A stretch of 26,248 nucleotides of DNA. It comes from Candidatus Acetothermia bacterium. GTDB taxonomy: Bacteria; Bipolaricaulota; Bipolaricaulia; M55B111. A program made the position numbers and the translations under genes. The stretch is from NCBI GenBank assembly GCA_046543235.1, contig JBKGZT010000015.1:1-26248 (forward strand), in the 5' to 3' direction. The notes beneath the pieces were generated by a model. It ran no database searches. It had not been told where the DNA came from and saw nothing but the letters and a program-made list of their open reading frames with translations. This document shows positions 14,832 through 22,651 of the stretch, piece after piece (position 1 is the first letter of the stretch; each line of letters begins with the position of its first letter).

Positions 14832-15716
14832 ATGTCAGTTGGCGGACAGGCGGTAATCGAGGGCGTCTTGATGAGGAACGGGGATAACATCTCCGTCGCG
14901 GTCAGACGTTCTTCTGACGGCGAGATAGTCGTTGAAGACTTGGAACCAAGGGACAAGTTTAAAGGCCTTAGCAAAATCCCCTTCGTCAGGGGAATTTTTA
15001 ACCTTTATGACATGATGAGTACCGGGATAAGGGCTTTGAACCTTTCGGCGGAAATAGCTCTCGAGGAAGAAGACGAGGACTTCGGGACGTCCGAAACTAT
15101 TTTGACGACAGGAATAGCCTTTCTGGTAGCTATCGGCGTCTTTGTGGTTCTTCCCGTATGGGCCACAAATAACCTCTGGGGGCTTTCCGAGGGTAATGCC
15201 TTTCTATTCAACCTGGTCGAAGGGTTGATCAGGATAGGATTCTTCCTGCTTTACCTGGCAGGTATAACGTTCTTCGAGGATATCAGGCGCGTTTTCCAGT
15301 ATCACGGGGCAGAGCATAAGTCCGTTTACGCTTACGAGAACGATCGGGATCTGGTCGTGGACGAGGCCAGGGAATACAGCACGTTGCACCCTAGATGTGG
15401 TACTGCTTTTTTGATGATAGTTCTGGTAGTGGCGATTTTGACTTTTTCCCTCGTTGGCAATCCACCGCTCCTGCTTAAAATTATCTCCCGTCTCCTGTTG
15501 TTACCGGTCGTAGCCGGTGTTTCTTACGAGATACTCAAGTTTTCCGGCAGACACGCGGATAACCCATTTTTGAGACCATTCCTTTTGCCCGGGTTGGCGC
15601 TTCAGAAGATCACCACCAGGGAGCCTTCGGATGAACAGCTGGAGGTAGCACTCGAGGCGATAAAGCGCGTGGTGGGTTCGGACGGAAGTAACGAGTCAAT
15701 CGATACTGAGCAGTAA
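14832..15716 (+). CDS. DUF1385 family membrane protein
   Basis: GGQAVIEGV, PFVRG, RVFQYHGAEHK, HPRCGT and LQKITTREP motifs; usual position after rpmE. Confidence 0.9.
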   Translation: MSVGGQAVIEGVLMRNGDNISVAVRRSSDGEIVVEDLEPRDKFKGLSKIPFVRGIFNLYDMMSTGIRALNLSAEIALEEEDEDFGTSETILTTGIAFLVAIGVFVVLPVWATNNLWGLSEGNAFLFNLVEGLIRIGFFLLYLAGITFFEDIRRVFQYHGAEHKSVYAYENDRDLVVDEAREYSTLHPRCGTAFLMIVLVVAILTFSLVGNPPLLLKIISRLLLLPVVAGVSYEILKFSGRHADNPFLRPFLLPGLALQKITTREPSDEQLEVALEAIKRVVGSDGSNESIDTEQ

Positions 15717-16484
15717 CTCGTCGTCCTCGATATCCCTTTCGGAAAAGCTCTGAAGTAGGTCATCTATTGTGAGCGACTGCTTTTTATCCCCGTTTACGTC
15801 GTAAACTATCCTTCCCCGGTGGAGCATAGTCAATCTATTTCCCAGTTTTAATGCTTGCTTCATGTCGTGGGTAACCATGATCGTAGTCAATCCCTTTTCG
15901 CGGACCAACTTCTTCGTTATATCTATTATCTTATCGGCGTTTTTGGGATCCAGTGATGCCGTGTGTTCATCCAGCAGCAGGAGATTTGGGGTAGTAAAAG
16001 TAGCCATCAGTACGGCCAGCCCCTGGCGCTGACCACCGGACAGGTGCCTGATTCTTTCCCCCAACCGTTCCTCAAGCCCCAGACCGAGCTTACTCAGTTC
16101 TTCCCGGAACCGTTCCTTTCTATCGGATGTAACGCCCTTGCGCAGCCCCCTGCCTGATTTTTTTATAGCCAGGCTAAGGTTCTGGGCGACAGTCATTCCC
16201 GGAGCCGTCCCCTTTCCCGGTTCCTGAAATACCCTGCCGATGTAGGCTGCCCTCTGGTGTTCCGAATATCCAGTTACGTCAACTCCCTCAAGGAGAACCT
16301 TGCCGGTCGTCGGCGATATACTCCCCGCGATTAAATTCAAGAAAGTGGTTTTTCCGGCTCCGTTGCTGCCAATGACGGAGGCGAAGTTCCCATCGTCGAG
16401 TGAAAAATCAATTTTTTCTAGTGCTACAACTTCGTTATTTGTTCCCTCAAGGAATTTTTTACTCAGGTCAATTACTTCTAACAT
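15696..16484 (-). CDS. ABC transporter ATP-binding subunit (aromatic amino acid type)
   Basis: GSNGAGKT, LSGGQRQ, LLLLDEHTASLDP and MVTH motifs. Confidence 0.92.
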   Translation of the reverse strand: MLEVIDLSKKFLEGTNNEVVALEKIDFSLDDGNFASVIGSNGAGKTTFLNLIAGSISPTTGKVLLEGVDVTGYSEHQRAAYIGRVFQEPGKGTAPGMTVAQNLSLAIKKSGRGLRKGVTSDRKERFREELSKLGLGLEERLGERIRHLSGGQRQGLAVLMATFTTPNLLLLDEHTASLDPKNADKIIDITKKLVREKGLTTIMVTHDMKQALKLGNRLTMLHRGRIVYDVNGDKKQSLTIDDLLQSFSERDIEDDELLLSID

Positions 16485-16512: not shown

Positions 16513-17403
16513 TCAGAAATGCAAATTTATCTTTTCTCTAACCTGGGGGAAGGCCAGAGCCAAAATCACTATCATGGAGGTTATTAGCTTCATGTCGCTG
16601 GACCGGAATCCTAGGTTGTGGCCGTATCTCAGAGCGACCATTATCGTCGTTCTGTAAATTAACGAACCGGTAATTACCGCGGTAGTCATCCAGCGAAAGC
16701 TCTTAATTGGTAAAAGGGTTTCACCGATTATTACGGACGCCAGTCCGGCGATTATCGTTCCGATCCCCATTCCTACGTCGGCAAATCCGGAGTACTGTGC
16801 AACCAGCCCCCCGGAGAGTGCGACGAGGCCGTTGGAAATTGCCAGCCCGAGTACCTTCATGAGATCCGTATTGACACCCTGAGCTTTAATCATTTGCTCG
16901 TTGTCCCCTGTAGCTCTCAGGGCAAGCCCGATCTCGGTGTTGAAGAATGAGTCGAGTAGAAGCTTGATTATTAGAACGAGTACCACGAAGAATACCAGAG
17001 TTGAATAATCCCCTAGCCCCAGTGGAGTTAGGATGTGACTGACTTCATCAATTAATGTTTCTTCCCCAAGCAGCGGCATGTTTGGGCGACCCATTATGCG
17101 CAGGTTCACGGAATAAAGCAGGGTCATTGTCAGAATGCCTGCCAGAAGGTTCAATATTTTCAATTTGGTGCTAAGCAAACCCGTAAAAACCCCGGCGCTT
17201 ATCCCCCCGATTATTCCTAACAGGATAGCGAGGAACGGATTCCAGCCAAAAACCAATAGAGAAGCGGTAATCCCAGCTCCCATGGGGAAGCTTCCGTCAA
17301 CAGTTAGATCCGGAAAGTCCAGAACTCTGAAAGTAATCAGTACTCCAAGTGACATTATTCCGTATACGAGACCCTGTTCCAATGAGTTAATCAGTAAAGA
17401 CAT
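16513..17403 (-). CDS. ABC transporter permease (aromatic amino acid type)
   Basis: FRVLDFPDLTVDGSF, LLAGIL, YSVNLRIMG, GLALRATGDN and GLASVIIGE motifs; multiple hydrophobic segments. Confidence 0.9.
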   Translation of the reverse strand: MSLLINSLEQGLVYGIMSLGVLITFRVLDFPDLTVDGSFPMGAGITASLLVFGWNPFLAILLGIIGGISAGVFTGLLSTKLKILNLLAGILTMTLLYSVNLRIMGRPNMPLLGEETLIDEVSHILTPLGLGDYSTLVFFVVLVLIIKLLLDSFFNTEIGLALRATGDNEQMIKAQGVNTDLMKVLGLAISNGLVALSGGLVAQYSGFADVGMGIGTIIAGLASVIIGETLLPIKSFRWMTTAVITGSLIYRTTIMVALRYGHNLGFRSSDMKLITSMIVILALAFPQVREKINLHF

Positions 17404-17447: not shown

Positions 17448-18479
17448 TTAACCTACTTGTTCCCAGAGTTTTTCCGCGTAGTAAACCTGATTTGCGAGTT
17501 CTAGCGCGGACTCGGGAAACTCAAGCTCTATCTCTCGCGCGACGTCGAGGTTCAGGGCAAGCTTGATGTTTTCTTTCGTCTGCTCTAGCTCGTGTATAGG
17601 TATTTCGTTGGGCTCTTCTCCCCCTAAGATACGTACAACCACCTCGCCGCAAACTTCTCCATGTCGTTGGTAACTCCAGCCAAAAGCGGCTACGGGCCCA
17701 TCCGCTATAGTCGTCGGATCAGCTGTTACTAGGGGAATATCTTCGTCTACAGCGACGTCGGATACTGCCGGAAGCGCGGATACGACCGTGTTGTCGTTCG
17801 AGACCCATATTGCCCCTGCGCGCCCCTTTAGGGAATCGGCAGCCATCTGGACTTCGCTTGATTTGTTTGCCGAGGCTTTGACAACTTCAATACCCAGGTC
17901 CTCGGCAACATCTTCGGCGACGCTATTCAGATACCTGGAGTTTGCCTCACCGGGGTTGTATACGATTCCGATCTTTTCGATTTCCGGACGAAGGTCGGTT
18001 ATTAGTTCTATCTGTTTTCTCACGGGGGTCATATCAGTGACGCCAGTAATATTTCCGTTATCTTCGGGATTTTCGTAATCGTCGTAACTATCCACTAGAC
18101 CGGCTTCTACGAAGTTGGTTACAGCACTTACGACTAGTGGCGTCTCGTCGAAGACCTCGGCTGCTGCCTGAGCGGTTGGCGTGGCTATAGGCACCACGAC
18201 GTCAACGTTCTCGGATTTGAAGGTTTGAGCGATGGATAGCGCGTTGTTGAAGTCCCCCTGAGCATTTCTGGTCAGGAACTCTACGTCCTTCCCCTCTTCG
18301 AATCCGTTTTCCTTTACCACTTCTATAACTGCGTCCCGGACTGCGTCCAGGGCCGGATGCTCCACGATCTGGGATATTCCTATTTTGACCGGTTCTTCCG
18401 CTGTTAACCCGCCAAATGAAAAACCGAAAAGCAAAATTCCCACCACGAGGACTAGGGCTAATTTCTTACATGCTAGCAT
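17448..18479 (-). CDS. ABC transporter substrate-binding protein (ABC_sub_bind / TrpX-like Tyr/Trp-binding family)
   Basis: Signal peptide; IGISQIVEHPALD, NAQGD, IATPTAQA, SAVT, NITGVTD, YNPGEANS and NDNTV motifs; AGGAGG RBS. Confidence 0.9.
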   Translation of the reverse strand: MLACKKLALVLVVGILLFGFSFGGLTAEEPVKIGISQIVEHPALDAVRDAVIEVVKENGFEEGKDVEFLTRNAQGDFNNALSIAQTFKSENVDVVVPIATPTAQAAAEVFDETPLVVSAVTNFVEAGLVDSYDDYENPEDNGNITGVTDMTPVRKQIELITDLRPEIEKIGIVYNPGEANSRYLNSVAEDVAEDLGIEVVKASANKSSEVQMAADSLKGRAGAIWVSNDNTVVSALPAVSDVAVDEDIPLVTADPTTIADGPVAAFGWSYQRHGEVCGEVVVRILGGEEPNEIPIHELEQTKENIKLALNLDVAREIELEFPESALELANQVYYAEKLWEQVG

Positions 18480-18532
18480 ATATACCTCCTGTGAAATGGG
18501 TTTTCGTTACTCCAAACTCATATTCCCCAAAT

Positions 18533-18562
18533 AAAAAAAACTATAGGATAAACCTATAGTTT
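18533..18562 (-). terminator. Attenuator-type intrinsic terminator in the transporter leader
   Basis: Minus strand AAACUAUAGG-UUUAU-CCUAUAG followed by U8, lying between the leader ORF and the first structural gene. Confidence 0.85.
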
Positions 18563-18568
18563 GCTTGA

Positions 18569-18604
18569 GTTTAGGGCTAAGTTTGGTATCGTTCTGCCCT
18601 AAAC
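18569..18604 (-). promoter_or_regulatory. Leader hairpin (pause / anti-antiterminator candidate)
   Basis: Perfect 9-bp inverted repeat GTTTAGGGC (18569-18577) / GCCCTAAAC (18596-18604), directly after the leader stop codon. Confidence 0.7.
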
Positions 18605-18605
18605 C

Positions 18606-18659
18606 TTACTTGTGCCAATAATAATAAGTATAGCTAATTGAAGACTCCGCTCCGCTCAC
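18606..18659 (-). CDS. Tyr/Trp-rich leader peptide MSGAESSISYTYYYWHK (17 aa; 35 aa if started at ATG 18713)
   Basis: AGGAGGTGAT RBS (18670-18661), GTG start, and codons TAT ACT TAT TAT TAT TGG just before the stop. Confidence 0.8.
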   Translation of the reverse strand: MSGAESSISYTYYYWHK

Positions 18660-18751
18660 TATCACCTCCTCTGCTAACAATCCGGTATGTACGGATTTGT
18701 GTTTTTTACTCATCACTGTTGAATTCCCCTGTTTTGTTCATAATCTCAATA

Positions 18752-18780
18752 ATAATATCTAGTTCACGGTAAATTGTCAA
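18752..18780 (-). promoter_or_regulatory. Sigma70-type promoter of the leader/ABC operon
   Basis: Minus strand TTGACA (18780-18775), 17 bp spacer, TATTAT (18757-18752). Confidence 0.8.
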
Positions 18781-19143: not shown

Positions 19144-20442
19144 GTGAAAAAACTTAAGAATATTAAAAGTGGTTCATCTGGGATAATGCTCGGAATAGTT
19201 TTGGTTCTGCTTGCCGGACTGATAGTGCCCAGTACTGGAGTTCAGGCTCAGGAAGATGATATTAAGATCGGATCTTTAATGGCGATGAGCGGGGCCCTGG
19301 CTTCTTATGGACCGCCGATCAACGACGGAGTAGAACTAGCGGCGAAACACTTAAACGAAGCGGGAGGAATTCTAGGTAGGGACGTGGAAATAGTGACGAG
19401 AGATAGCAAAACTGACCCGACTAGCGGAGTGGACGCCGCCAAGAAACTGGTTGACGTAGATGAAGTGAGCGCCTTCGTGGGCCCTCTCTCCAGCGGGGTT
19501 ACGCTTCCGGTTGCGGAAAGCGTCTCCGTCCCGGAAGAGGTAGTTCAAATATCTCCTTCAGCTACCACCCCTCAGATGACCGGCCTGGAAGACGACGACT
19601 ACGTCTTCAGGACCGTCCCCAGTGACGCGCTGCAGGGAGTGATAATTGGACAGCTTGCCTTGGACCTGGGCTACGAGAATTTCTCCGTGATTTACGTAAA
19701 CAACGACTACGGAAAAGGTTTGGCAGACGCCGCAGGCGACTGGTTCGAGGAAAGGGGCGGAGAAGTATTGACTAAAGTTCCTTACGAGAAAGGGAAGGCT
19801 TCTTATCGAGGAGAGCTTGAGGAAGCCGCGGCGGGGAACCCGGAAGTCCTCGTGCTTGTTGGCTATCCTGAAAACGGTACCAACATCGTCCGTCAGGCGC
19901 TTTCGGGTGGTTACATGGATGAATTCATTTTCCCGGATGGCATGCAAGCACCGGAGATAATCGAGAACATCGAGGCCCAGTACCTAAATGGGACATACGG
20001 CACCGCCCCTGGTTCGAAGGACACTCCTTCGGCCGAAACTTTCGAGGAAACATATACTGAAGAGTACGGTTCCACCCCACCGAAGCCTTTCATGACCAAT
20101 GCCTACGACGCCGCTACCGTGATCAGTCTGGCCATGCAGAAGGCGGGAAGCACCGACTCGGAAGCCATAAAAAACAACCTGCGCGACGTCTCGAACCCTC
20201 CCGGGGAGAAAGTCTACGCCGGCCCCGAGGAATTCGAAAAGGCGTTCGAGCTGCTGGAAGAGGGTGAGGAGATTAACTACGAAGGGGCCGGTGGATCGGT
20301 CGACTTCAACTCCGACGGGGACGTCGTTTCTCCGATTCAGGTATGGAAGATCGAGGACGGGGAAATCGTTACCGATAGAGTGGAGGAAATAGCCGTGCAG
20401 GACGGCAGGTTCGTTCCCGCCAAGATAGTGGAAGAGGAATAA
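19144..20442 (+). CDS. LIV/HAAT-family ABC transporter substrate-binding protein
   Basis: Signal peptide; IKIGSL..MSG, LNEAGGILG, ISPSAT, FRTVPSD, NNDYGKGL and AYDA motifs. Confidence 0.9.
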   Translation: MKKLKNIKSGSSGIMLGIVLVLLAGLIVPSTGVQAQEDDIKIGSLMAMSGALASYGPPINDGVELAAKHLNEAGGILGRDVEIVTRDSKTDPTSGVDAAKKLVDVDEVSAFVGPLSSGVTLPVAESVSVPEEVVQISPSATTPQMTGLEDDDYVFRTVPSDALQGVIIGQLALDLGYENFSVIYVNNDYGKGLADAAGDWFEERGGEVLTKVPYEKGKASYRGELEEAAAGNPEVLVLVGYPENGTNIVRQALSGGYMDEFIFPDGMQAPEIIENIEAQYLNGTYGTAPGSKDTPSAETFEETYTEEYGSTPPKPFMTNAYDAATVISLAMQKAGSTDSEAIKNNLRDVSNPPGEKVYAGPEEFEKAFELLEEGEEINYEGAGGSVDFNSDGDVVSPIQVWKIEDGEIVTDRVEEIAVQDGRFVPAKIVEEE

Positions 20443-20469
20443 GAGGTTTAAGAATTATCTTAGATGAGT

Positions 20470-20502
20470 AAGGGCCCCGAAACCGGGGCCCTTTTTATTT
20501 TT
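20470..20502 (+). terminator. Intrinsic terminator
   Basis: AGGGCCCCG-AAAC-CGGGGCCCT followed by TTTTATTTTT. Confidence 0.85.
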
Positions 20503-20549
20503 CCTTATCGATTCTTTCATTGAAACGTAACTTAAGATCCTAAAGATGC

Positions 20550-20737
20550 ATAGTGTAGCATTTTACCTGTAAAACTAGCTTTGGAGACCGTTCGACAGAA
20601 CCAGGGATCAATTTCCCAGCGGGGAAATCCCCCTTTCCGATCTAAGTGTTGGAACCACTCCCGCTCGCCTCCGATGTGATCTTCCTGAACGGTTTCCAAA
20701 GCTATAAATTCATTTCACGCAGTTGTTTATACACTAT
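20550..20737. repeat. Palindromic intergenic repeat, copy 2 (MITE-like)
   Basis: Outer ends ATAGTGTA...TACACTAT. Inner 18-bp inverted repeat at 20576-20593 / 20687-20704 (1 mismatch). About 16 extra bases inside relative to copy 1. Confidence 0.9.
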
Positions 20738-20778
20738 CGAGATGTGGAAAGAAATGAAACTCTTGTCTTTAATCAGAG

Positions 20779-21720
20779 TTATTCGTTGCTACCCCCCAGC
20801 TTGGATATTATCTTCTCCCTGCCAAACAGGCCTTGAGGCCTGATCAACAGGATTACATCCAGAAGAATACCCATGAGAAGCATCCTGACGAACCCCGCCT
20901 TGTTGGTTATCCCCGAAGGCAGGATATCGATAAGAAACTCGCTTCCTATCCAGACGCCCCAAACCACGAATGCGCCGAGGATTACCCCCTTGTTGCTCCC
21001 CGTACCACCGAGCAGGATCATCAACCAGACTATGAAGGTCGCCATTAGTGGTGTGAAGGAACTGGGACTGATGAAGCCGACGTAATGGGCATAGAGTGCA
21101 CCGGCGATTCCCATGACCATGGATCCGAAGACGAAGGACTGCATCTTAACGTTCCAGCTGTCCTTGCCGGACATTTCGGCCATCTTCTCGTCCTCCCTTA
21201 CGGCGTTGAGCATCCTGCCCCACGGGGACCTGACGCCGATTTCTGTCATCCGGTAGAAAATAAATAGGAGAACCCCGGCAATTCCCAGGTAGATCCATTC
21301 CGAGAGATCAGCGCCGACGAGGTTTCTCGTTGGTTGAGGAATGCCTCTAATACCCCAGACGCCGTTTGTCAGCCATTTTTCGTTTTTTACTATGAGCCGA
21401 ATTGTCTCTGAGATTGCCAGCATGGAGATGGCGAAGAAGCCCCCGCGCAATCGAAGGGCGGGGAAAGCTAGGAGATAGGCCAGGAATCCGGACAGGATCG
21501 CCGCGCCCAATAGCCCCACTATGAAGGGCAATCCAAAACCACCGACGTAATCAGGGGATGAAGAGGTAGTAAGTAGCGCGGAGGTGTAGGCGCCGACGAA
21601 GTAAAACGTACCGATACCAAAGTTCATTAAGCCCGTAAAACCCCACTGGAGATTGAGCGCCAGGGCGGCAATTCCGTACGTGCTGGCCATAATGAGATAC
21701 GATATAAAGTAGCTTAGCAT
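20779..21720 (-). CDS. livM: LIV-family ABC permease (LivM-like)
   Basis: LNLQWGFTGLMNFG, PALRLRG.FFAI, SPWGRMLNAVREDE and LLGGTGS motifs. Confidence 0.85.
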   Translation of the reverse strand: MLSYFISYLIMASTYGIAALALNLQWGFTGLMNFGIGTFYFVGAYTSALLTTSSSPDYVGGFGLPFIVGLLGAAILSGFLAYLLAFPALRLRGGFFAISMLAISETIRLIVKNEKWLTNGVWGIRGIPQPTRNLVGADLSEWIYLGIAGVLLFIFYRMTEIGVRSPWGRMLNAVREDEKMAEMSGKDSWNVKMQSFVFGSMVMGIAGALYAHYVGFISPSSFTPLMATFIVWLMILLGGTGSNKGVILGAFVVWGVWIGSEFLIDILPSGITNKAGFVRMLLMGILLDVILLIRPQGLFGREKIISKLGGSNE

Positions 21721-21724
21721 CTTA

Positions 21725-22651
21725 TCACTCTCCCGTTCCGAATATTCCCTGTGGTCTAAATAACAAAACGATTACCATCAGTACAAAGGCAATGGCTGGT
21801 TTGTAAGCGGTCATTAGCACGTCCAGCTCCAGAGCGTCGAATACGTTCTGTAGCACGCCGGTCAGCATTTCCTGAGCCACTCCGATGATCATTGCTCCAA
21901 CCATGGCACCCCATAGATCCCCGACTCCGGCGACGACGACTGCCACGAATATCGGTATCAGGATGTTCCAGCCCATTATCGGTCGTAGCTGAACTTCTAT
22001 TCCGTAGAGAACGCCGGCTGCCGCTGTGAGGGAGACGGCAATGATCCAGGTCCAGTTGACCACCTCTTCCGTATCTATCCCTGTAACCCGGGCCAGGGTC
22101 TTGTTGTCGGAAGCTGCCCGCATTGCCTTGCCGATCTTCGTCTGTTTGAGAAACAGGTATACGACGACGACCAGGAAGAGGGCGGTCCCCACGATGAAGA
22201 ACTCGTCAGGTTTGACCGTAATTCCCAGCGGAAAGCGCTTCGTCATTTGCAGCCCGCCGTAGTATTTTGCCTGAGGCCCCCAGACCAATCTTATAATTGA
22301 GCGGAAGATGAACGCGACCCCGAGCGAGGAGAGCGCCAGGAAGAGCTCGCTCGCCCCCCTCTCCCGAAGGGGCTTAAACAGTACCTTGTCGAAGAACAGA
22401 GCGAAGGCGGACATCACGACCATCGCAAATACGATGGCCAGGATCATTGCGGGGCCGAAAGATAGGGCGGGGAAGTTACCCCAATTCGGCATGACCCCGA
22501 CGAAGAAGAGGGCCAGGTAGGCGCCGAAGCTGAGCATATCCCCGTGGGCGAAGTTGAAGAAGTTCAGGATATCCGCGATCAACGTTACGCCTATGGCGCC
22601 CAGAGTAAAGATGCTGCCTAGAATCAATCCGTTTACAAACAGGTCAGCCAT
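21725..22651 (-). CDS. livH: LIV-family ABC permease (LivH-like)
   Basis: NGLILGSIFTLGAIG, NFAHG, TKIGKAMRA and LLFRPQGIFG motifs. Confidence 0.85.
   Translation of the reverse strand: MADLFVNGLILGSIFTLGAIGVTLIADILNFFNFAHGDMLSFGAYLALFFVGVMPNWGNFPALSFGPAMILAIVFAMVVMSAFALFFDKVLFKPLRERGASELFLALSSLGVAFIFRSIIRLVWGPQAKYYGGLQMTKRFPLGITVKPDEFFIVGTALFLVVVVYLFLKQTKIGKAMRAASDNKTLARVTGIDTEEVVNWTWIIAVSLTAAAGVLYGIEVQLRPIMGWNILIPIFVAVVVAGVGDLWGAMVGAMIIGVAQEMLTGVLQNVFDALELDVLMTAYKPAIAFVLMVIVLLFRPQGIFGTGE

Follow-up and report, generated by a model that had tools for sequence, protein, structure and literature searches.

A hallmark of ribosome-mediated attenuation is that the codon content of a short leader open reading frame (ORF) tracks the pathway under its control, and in E. 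coli trpL the Trp codons lie within region 1. Other short 5' elements also respond to amino acid supply: in the available text of the respective reports, leaderless poly-Cys short ORFs of mycobacteria are described as Cys-responsive attenuators (bioRxiv 10.1101/834739), and the PF04392-type importer encoded by trpX of S. suis is described as T-box-controlled (PMC9382623). Here we analyse a leader region upstream of an importer operon of the same transporter family, of the ATP-binding cassette (ABC) type, in a Candidatus Acetothermia bacterium of the Bipolaricaulota (assembly GCA_046543235.1, contig JBKGZT010000015.1). The whole stretch of 26,248 nt that was analysed is referred to as the window; the leader region lies at 18480–18780, and all window features are on the minus strand unless stated otherwise. 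The genome is metagenome-assembled (87% complete, 1.32 Mb, 52.7% G+C), and the DNA sequencing runs that contain it are hypersaline lake and mat metagenomes.

The leader is a real and conserved aromatic amino acid attenuator. We consider it probable that it is a ribosome-mediated transcription attenuator which senses charged tRNA-Tyr and tRNA-Trp, with starvation raising read-through into the genes of a Tyr-type aromatic importer. A first-pass annotation, made from the window sequence, had proposed a ribosome-stalling Tyr/Trp attenuator on an aromatic importer and had taken it as a hint of the transported substrate. The comparative data strongly support that proposal, through 51 loci, two sister attenuators and the ligand-contacting residues of the binding protein; the antiterminator pairing, the ribosome-binding site (RBS) and start codon, and the ORF length that came with it did not hold.

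The importer leader and its conservation

Reading in the direction of transcription, the region begins with a sigma-70-type promoter (18752–18780), in which TTGACA at 18780–18775 and TATTAT at 18757–18752 are separated by a 17-nt spacer. These elements are as the first-pass annotation had described them. They agree with the consensus at 11 of 12 positions, and the upstream regions of relatives have a −35/−10 pair at the same position. The scan returned four promoter-like sites, compared with 1.9 ± 1.3 in shuffled sequences. A purine-rich Shine-Dalgarno (SD) sequence at 18725–18730 precedes the leader ORF (18606–18713), which has 35 codons and a stop, with ATG at 18713, GTG at 18716 as an alternative start, and TAA at 18608–18606. 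The regulatory codon cluster, Tyr-Thr-Tyr-Tyr-Tyr-Trp, occupies 18615–18632, with TAT at 18632–18630 and 18626–18618 and the Trp codon at 18617–18615. Thus the last seven sense codons include four Tyr codons and one TGG, the ending quoted at first pass; all four are TAT, the minor Tyr codon of this genome (27%).

The 5' arm of a hairpin, HP1 (18568–18605), starts directly after the stop codon. Its arms, 18605–18596 and 18577–18568, form 10 pairs, and the fold has an energy of −14.1 kcal/mol, with z = −4.05 relative to shuffled controls. Further downstream is an intrinsic terminator (18530–18562), consisting of a stem at 18562–18538, a run of eight T at 18540–18533 and a T-rich tail, for which the fold gives −11.2 kcal/mol and z = −3.76. 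The RBS of the binding-protein gene is at 18490–18485, and its ATG is at 18479. The hairpin past the stop, the terminator with its eight T and the RBS after it had all been seen at first pass, and all three are borne out.

Two small features overlap the leader ORF. An 11-codon ORF in the 5' untranslated region (5' UTR; 18706–18741) has a stop that overlaps the leader-ORF start; it is present also in the closest relative, and the other relatives have different mini-ORFs or none. A 6-pair hairpin lies within codons 6–12 of the leader ORF (18679–18697), and the scan calls it terminator-like on the plus strand.

The layout of the leader is widely retained among relatives. It was found at 16 of 17 orthologous loci in the genomes of relatives, the seventeenth locus having just 86 nt of upstream sequence. 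The criterion for detection was at least four aromatic residues within six. Among genome contigs, the leader is present at all 16 loci from records titled Acetothermia/Bipolaricaulota or (uncultured) Thermotogae/Thermotogota, and under this criterion at none of the 64 loci from other taxa; the leaders from titled genome records are all of the Acetothermia/Bipolaricaulota type. Among metagenome contigs, 29 of the 70 loci with at least 250 nt of upstream sequence were flagged (three were duplicates and one was a spurious ORF of nine residues), and the flagged loci are those whose binding proteins are most similar. In total, 51 distinct leaders stand upstream of a PF04392 importer, with the frame, the start and the aromatic cluster kept, which answers the check for conserved aromatic codon runs that the first-pass annotation had suggested. 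Both synonymous codons are in use for Tyr and for Phe across these leaders, and so it is the identity of the amino acid that is conserved.

Three groups can be distinguished. Group A, with 13 leaders including that of the window, is rich in Tyr and has one or two Trp codons; group B, with 29, has two Trp codons together with Phe/Tyr and a tail of two to nine more codons; and group C comprises nine leaders of 22–27 codons. The leader starts of groups B and C fall within ∼0–3 nt of the predicted start of the transcript. An AT-rich relative on a metagenome contig (L152) carries, before its binding-protein gene, a leader of 20 codons of which the last five are aromatic, followed by a hairpin. The 5'-arm sequence of that hairpin recurs just downstream, in what looks like a classical 1:2/2:3 arrangement, with no clear T-run.

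A second conserved element lies inside the ORF. This is an in-frame SD-like motif (18660–18671; core GGAGGTGA), read as Glu-Glu-Val-Ile, which had earlier been taken for a perfect RBS serving a leader of 17 codons. The sequence AGGAGGTGAT at 18670–18661 is in frame within the 35-codon ORF, which starts at ATG 18713 behind its own SD at 18730–18725. All orthologues keep the long frame open and have an upstream ATG or TTG in frame, preceded by an SD at 4–10 nt, and only the window and its closest relative have a start codon at usable spacing after the motif. For these reasons we rejected AGGAGGTGAT as the RBS and start of the leader.

The motif is nevertheless well conserved. G[AG]GGTGA is present in frame 0 in 13 of 13 importer leaders of group A, in 9 of 9 of group C and in 0 of 29 of group B, and GG[AG]GGTG was found in 13 of 13 leaders of the family's trp operons, which are described below. 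The peptide that it encodes is Glu/Gly-Val-Ile across orthologues. Since GTG makes up only 21% of the Val codons of the genome, and GAG 50% of the Glu codons, the conservation is at the nucleotide level. The distance from the motif to the first Trp codon is 45–51 nt in group A and 27–36 nt in group C, and in 11 of 13 trp leaders the motif stands 48 nt before the first Trp codon of a W-x-W pair. An in-frame motif of this kind is expected ∼0.01 times per 35 codons, and among 395,030 windows of six residues in the long ORFs of the genome only 16 have at least five aromatics; with both so rare, chance is an unlikely explanation for the leader.

The internal GGAGGTGA motif would be complementary to the 3' tail of 16S rRNA (the anti-SD); the 3' end of the 16S rRNA was not found in this assembly. 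The motif might serve to pause translation and so time the ribosome, to hold a second ribosome, or to form one side, the 5' arm, of a hairpin further upstream. Such a hairpin, formed by the motif and the codons just before the cluster, is predicted by RNAalifold in group C with some compensatory changes, and is also found in the centroid fold of the window, yet as a class it is weak (mean z = −0.63). Several group B loci (e.g. L013, L026, L029 and L034), whose leaders are without the internal motif, have an SD-like GGAGGTGA directly after the T-run of the terminator. It is without a start codon at usable spacing and lies 60–200 nt upstream of the binding-protein gene.

Sister leaders and the predicted importer substrate

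A whole-genome scan for short ORFs ahead of 5'-UTR terminators yielded two more elements with the layout of the importer leader, one before trpE and the other before the operon of the common aromatic pathway (aro). The trp sister (contig C75, minus strand) has a consensus promoter, a 27-codon ORF ending in W-x-W-x-x-stop, a hairpin right after the stop and a terminator, and its downstream gene was identified as trpE by the Chorismate_bind and Anth_synt_I_N domains. The aro sister (contig C90, minus strand) is a near-leaderless 41-codon ORF upstream of chorismate mutase, 3-deoxy-D-arabino-heptulosonate 7-phosphate (DAHP) synthase and prephenate dehydrogenase. It ends with a run of three Tyr and four Phe codons, and no Trp, after which come two codons, the stop, a hairpin and a terminator. 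A second small ORF, also of 27 codons, is found at the trp locus between the terminator and the trpE frame.

Both sisters recur in relatives. Sixteen TrpE loci were examined, and the W-x-W-x-x-stop ending is present in all 13 loci of family f1 that have upstream DNA; as for the others, one has 52 nt upstream, a distant one has a different aromatic-rich ORF, and one is without any. The aro leader was found at 16 of 16 family loci with sufficient upstream DNA, with exactly two codons between the last aromatic codon and the stop in 15 of the 16. In one genome, then, three operons have leaders whose codons match the product of the pathway, and to us no other finding argues as strongly that the ORFs sense tRNA charging. 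Together, the leaders of the importer, the trp operon and the common aromatic pathway constitute an aromatic amino acid regulon.

With the queries used, DAHP synthase was found in 14 of 18 genomes of family f1, 1 of 7 of f4 and 0 of 6 of f6, and TrpE in 13 of 18, 0 of 7 and 0 of 6, respectively; the importer leaders of f4 and f6 combine Trp, Phe and Tyr. In the genome-wide scan for leader-type ORFs only the three aromatic elements stood out, and no His, Leu, Thr or Ile/Val leaders were seen under the criteria used. A 14-codon ORF with an aromatic-rich end, followed by a weak hairpin and a T-run, lies 17 nt before an ABC ATPase gene (contig C91, ∼16565–16606, plus strand); it may be a fourth, degenerate member or may be due to chance.

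The operon that the leader precedes encodes a substrate-binding protein (17448–18479; PF04392, E = 4.3e-73), a permease (16513–17403; BPD_transp_2, E = 7.2e-28) and an ATPase (15696–16484; ABC_tran, E = 1.2e-28), and so has the architecture of a PF04392 importer of the TrpXYZ/CD0873 type. The relatives of the binding protein in the Protein Data Bank are 3lkv, 6hni and 3lft. In the available text of PMC6816091 these bind Phe, Tyr and Trp, respectively, and ligand preference is set by two pocket residues, which are Glu263/Tyr279 in the Tyr binder, Ala/Tyr in the Phe binder and Ala/Gln in the Trp binder. In HMMER alignments, Asp254 of the window protein aligns with Glu263 and Tyr270 with Tyr279 of the Tyr binder, and both positions are invariant in 13 aligned Bipolaricaulota orthologues. 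From these residues we infer that the ligand would be of the Tyr type or the Tyr/Phe type. As the genome encodes chorismate synthase, TrpA and prephenate dehydratase, uptake would spare synthesis. A second ABC uptake system, of the branched-chain type, is nearby (19144–22651), with a plus-strand gene for a Peripla_BP_6 binding protein that diverges from the leader promoter, and minus-strand genes for two BPD_transp_2 permeases.

Ribosome position and control of the terminator

The ribosome-mediated attenuation that we consider probable would proceed as follows. Transcription from the promoter at 18780 would give a leader RNA with the 35-codon ORF, HP1 at its stop and the terminator. When charged tRNA-Tyr or tRNA-Trp is scarce, the ribosome would stall on the cluster, the last codon of which is 12 nt before HP1; fewer polymerases would then halt at the terminator, and the binding protein, permease and ATPase would be made. 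With Tyr and Trp plentiful, the ribosome would run on to the stop codon and transcription would end near 18533. This direction of regulation is suggested by analogy and by the biosynthetic nature of the trp and aro sister operons.

The two helices on which such a scheme depends are supported across the family. Arm-to-arm duplex energies were scored relative to composition-matched shuffles in 50 leaders, one having been dropped as its terminator could not be segmented. The HP1 duplex has a mean z of −3.6, with 82% of leaders below −2, and the terminator duplex a mean z of −5.4, with all 50 below −2. In RNAalifold, 5 of 22 predicted pairs of group A and 10 of 28 of group C show compensatory changes, which affect both helices, and HP1 and the terminator are the only helices with support.

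The spacing of the ORF and HP1 is also constrained. A bacterial ribosome covers ∼12 nt from the first base of the A-site codon. In 50 of 50 leaders, 3–12 nt separate the start of the last aromatic codon from the base at which HP1 pairing begins, and so a ribosome held at the final regulatory codon would touch, or partly melt, the foot of HP1. In the window the distance is 12 nt, flush with the footprint. Once at the stop codon, a ribosome would melt the whole of HP1 in groups A and C, and likewise in the two sister families. The link between the ribosome and the terminator might take either of two forms. A stalled ribosome could melt the base of HP1, so that the freed 3' arm and loop delay folding of the terminator through weak, non-conserved contacts, or HP1, when folded, could mark the state 'ribosome stalled' and suppress termination.

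Several results weigh against this scheme, most of them from the search for an antiterminator. When the RNA that a ribosome at the stop would leave free was folded without the 3' terminator arm, the structures were no more stable than those of shuffled sequences; for the window, with region 1 masked, the values are −2.2 kcal/mol and z = +0.29. The sites that pair best with the terminator arms are inconsistent between leaders, and a scan in which the ribosome mask was moved codon by codon, using partition functions, gave no trend in the pairing of the 5' terminator arm. RNAalifold on masked, truncated alignments returned 0 to −0.9 kcal/mol in groups A, B and C. In the scoring of duplexes by segment, where the two real hairpins served as controls and scored strongly, all twelve alternative pairings have mean z between −0.74 and +0.29 in the 50 importer leaders, and the ranges are −0.41 to +0.57 in 13 trp leaders and −1.29 to +0.10 in five aro leaders. 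Only these 5 of the 16 aro leaders could be segmented, the other 11 failing the T-run pattern; in two of the five, the 3' arm of HP1 scored below −2 with the 3' arm of the terminator. No antiterminator emerged, and so the mechanistic step expected of a classical attenuator is missing. The geometry adds a difficulty of its own. A ribosome terminating at the stop codon, which lies at the base of HP1, would cover the 5' arm to a greater extent than a stalled ribosome, and classical logic does not follow simply from this arrangement. In addition, the leaders go from Tyr-rich in group A to Trp/Phe-rich in groups B and C despite the invariant specificity residues of the binding protein, and so codon content is not one-to-one with the predicted ligand; a relative, L004/L024, has Arg where Trp stands.

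Boxes in the 5' UTR that resemble a terminator arm were seen in some relatives and were rejected, as they are not conserved. Rfam had no match in the window at gathering score and nothing relevant in the region at E up to 10, and no relevant match was obtained in the sister leaders or in two other Bipolaricaulota importer leaders. A T-box, or another known leader family, was rejected on this basis.

The first-pass annotation had offered a specific antiterminator, in which AAACUUA (18584–18578) pairs with UAGGUUU (18556–18550). This would make the element a textbook four-segment attenuator, where the freed HP1 segment pairs with the 5' half of the terminator, either through these seven pairs or through neighbouring 3'-arm bases and the terminator loop. 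The 7-pair match does exist, the terminator here is weak (−7.6 to −11 kcal/mol), a heptamer is common to the HP1 5' arm and the terminator in the genus of the window, and in four close relatives the 3' arm of HP1 can form six pairs with the terminator (−4.8 to −6.7 kcal/mol). When the alternative structures were folded, however, this pairing, like all other antiterminators, remained at the level of shuffled sequences (z = +0.29 in the window, group A mean z = −0.7). L002, the closest relative (93% identity in the binding protein), does not retain it, and it is absent from groups B and C, where terminators reach −15 to −36 kcal/mol, and from the sister trp and aro leaders. We regard the textbook arrangement as unlikely. 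The fixed interval of two codons between the last regulatory codon and the stop in 13 of 13 trp and 15 of 16 aro sister leaders, together with a second conserved element (Glu/Gly-Val) upstream at fixed spacing, would suit instead a TnaC-type arrest, where the aromatic C-terminus and free Tyr/Trp arrest the ribosome near the stop and occupancy of the HP1 5' arm sets termination. In group B, however, the interval from cluster to stop varies from two to nine codons while that from cluster to HP1 stays at 3–11 nt, and the upstream element is conserved as nucleotides, third codon positions and the infrequent GTG included. The codons follow the pathway product in three operons, as hungry-codon sensing predicts, and the known TnaC example uses Rho, not an intrinsic terminator. 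Nascent-peptide arrest thus seems to us very improbable.

Two further explanations would leave the ORF with little or no part in regulation. That no RNA antiterminator was found, and that, for a given operon type, the HP1 and terminator stem sequences are unusually conserved between genera although the remainder of the leader is divergent, could point to a trans-acting factor, either an RNA-binding protein or a tRNA, which binds HP1 and controls the terminator with the small ORF as an accessory. We think this highly doubtful, given that Rfam returned no match, T-box included, that the locus is without a candidate regulator gene, that HP1 sequences differ wholly between groups A, B and C with their pairing kept, and that the ORF frame, start and aromatic codons are retained in all 51 leaders. 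Finally, the conserved, translated-looking ORF with its start and SD might be a stand-alone gene for an aromatic micro-peptide, with a terminator of its own and no regulatory role. Yet its conservation is limited to the aromatic cluster and the SD-like motif, in group B the HP1 5' arm codes for the tail of the peptide, which varies with it, and the element is always directly upstream of the importer with no intervening promoter. There are no modifying or export genes nearby, and sister copies with matching codons stand before the trp and aro operons; we give the micro-peptide scarcely any credence.

Within ribosome-mediated attenuation, we put forward one more specific proposal, and only tentatively. 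Bipolaricaulota may use a distinct class of ribosome-controlled attenuator without an antiterminator helix, in which the hairpin at the stop codon reports the position of the ribosome, a folded hairpin or a parked ribosome lets polymerase pass the terminator a few bases further on, and the internal GGAGGTGA motif is part of the device. As long as the ribosome is held up at hungry aromatic codons HP1 would remain folded, and the arrival of the ribosome at the stop would unwind it; the motif, which is kept 45–51 nt from the Trp codon in the importer leaders of family f1, might, for example, hold a second ribosome or time the first. The parallel for such a device would be a cis-acting antiterminator RNA and not strand competition.

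Comparison with described systems

In the literature consulted, supplements aside, we came across neither a Tyr/Trp leader-peptide attenuator for importers of this family nor any attenuator in Bipolaricaulota/Acetothermia. The leaders offer a readable regulatory logic for a candidate phylum without cultured members, in that three operons are tied together by sister leader peptides, the codons of each leader name its signal, and the substrate class of the importer is predicted as well. With them, leader-peptide attenuation would come to include a Tyr/Trp-sensing switch for transporters of a family which other phyla place under T-boxes. With ∼70 related leaders that have no antiterminator helix, and an internal motif at fixed spacing, they also provide a system in which to ask whether the position of a ribosome can control an intrinsic terminator without strand competition.

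The closest likeness is to the classical attenuators (E. coli trpL, pheL and hisL; Rfam Trp_leader and Phe_leader), which share the short ORF with cognate codons, the hairpin touching the end of the ORF, and the intrinsic terminator before the first gene; the trp operon of this genome has a sister copy with two Trp codons. In contrast to the classical cases, there is here no Rfam match and no detectable, mutually exclusive antiterminator helix, and the regulatory codons precede the first hairpin instead of forming part of its 5' arm. The in-frame SD-like motif at fixed spacing, the importer as target and the mixture of Tyr and Trp (and Phe) codons are further differences. In operation the element would resemble the trpL/pheL class; it departs from that class in one defining feature, the antiterminator, and in having no Rfam match. 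TnaC-type arrest peptides resemble the sister leaders in having an aromatic residue at a fixed distance from the stop, and their operon also includes an uptake function; they differ in the use of Rho where an intrinsic terminator is found here, and the variable cluster-to-stop spacing of group B and codons that track the pathway are likewise points of difference.

With the mycobacterial poly-Cys ORFs, as described in the accessible part of bioRxiv 10.1101/834739, the element shares a short regulatory ORF at the 5' end of an operon, and the leaders of groups B and C come similarly close to the start of their transcripts. The amino acid and the lineage are different, and here a canonical hairpin and T-run terminator follow the ORF. 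For the transporter itself, a T-box is found upstream of the Caldatribacterium orthologue of the binding-protein gene (L068, 1195–1403, plus strand, 115 bits), and, taken with the T-box on the S. suis importer, this means that control of the transporter family by tRNA charging has precedent. The T-box-controlled TrpXYZ/CD0873 importers, as far as the available text of the reports on S. suis (PMC9382623) and C. difficile (PMC6816091) goes, belong to the same transporter family and share the class of signal, tRNA charging, and the output, an intrinsic terminator; whereas their sensor is a tRNA-binding RNA, the predicted sensor here is a ribosome translating the leader ORF.

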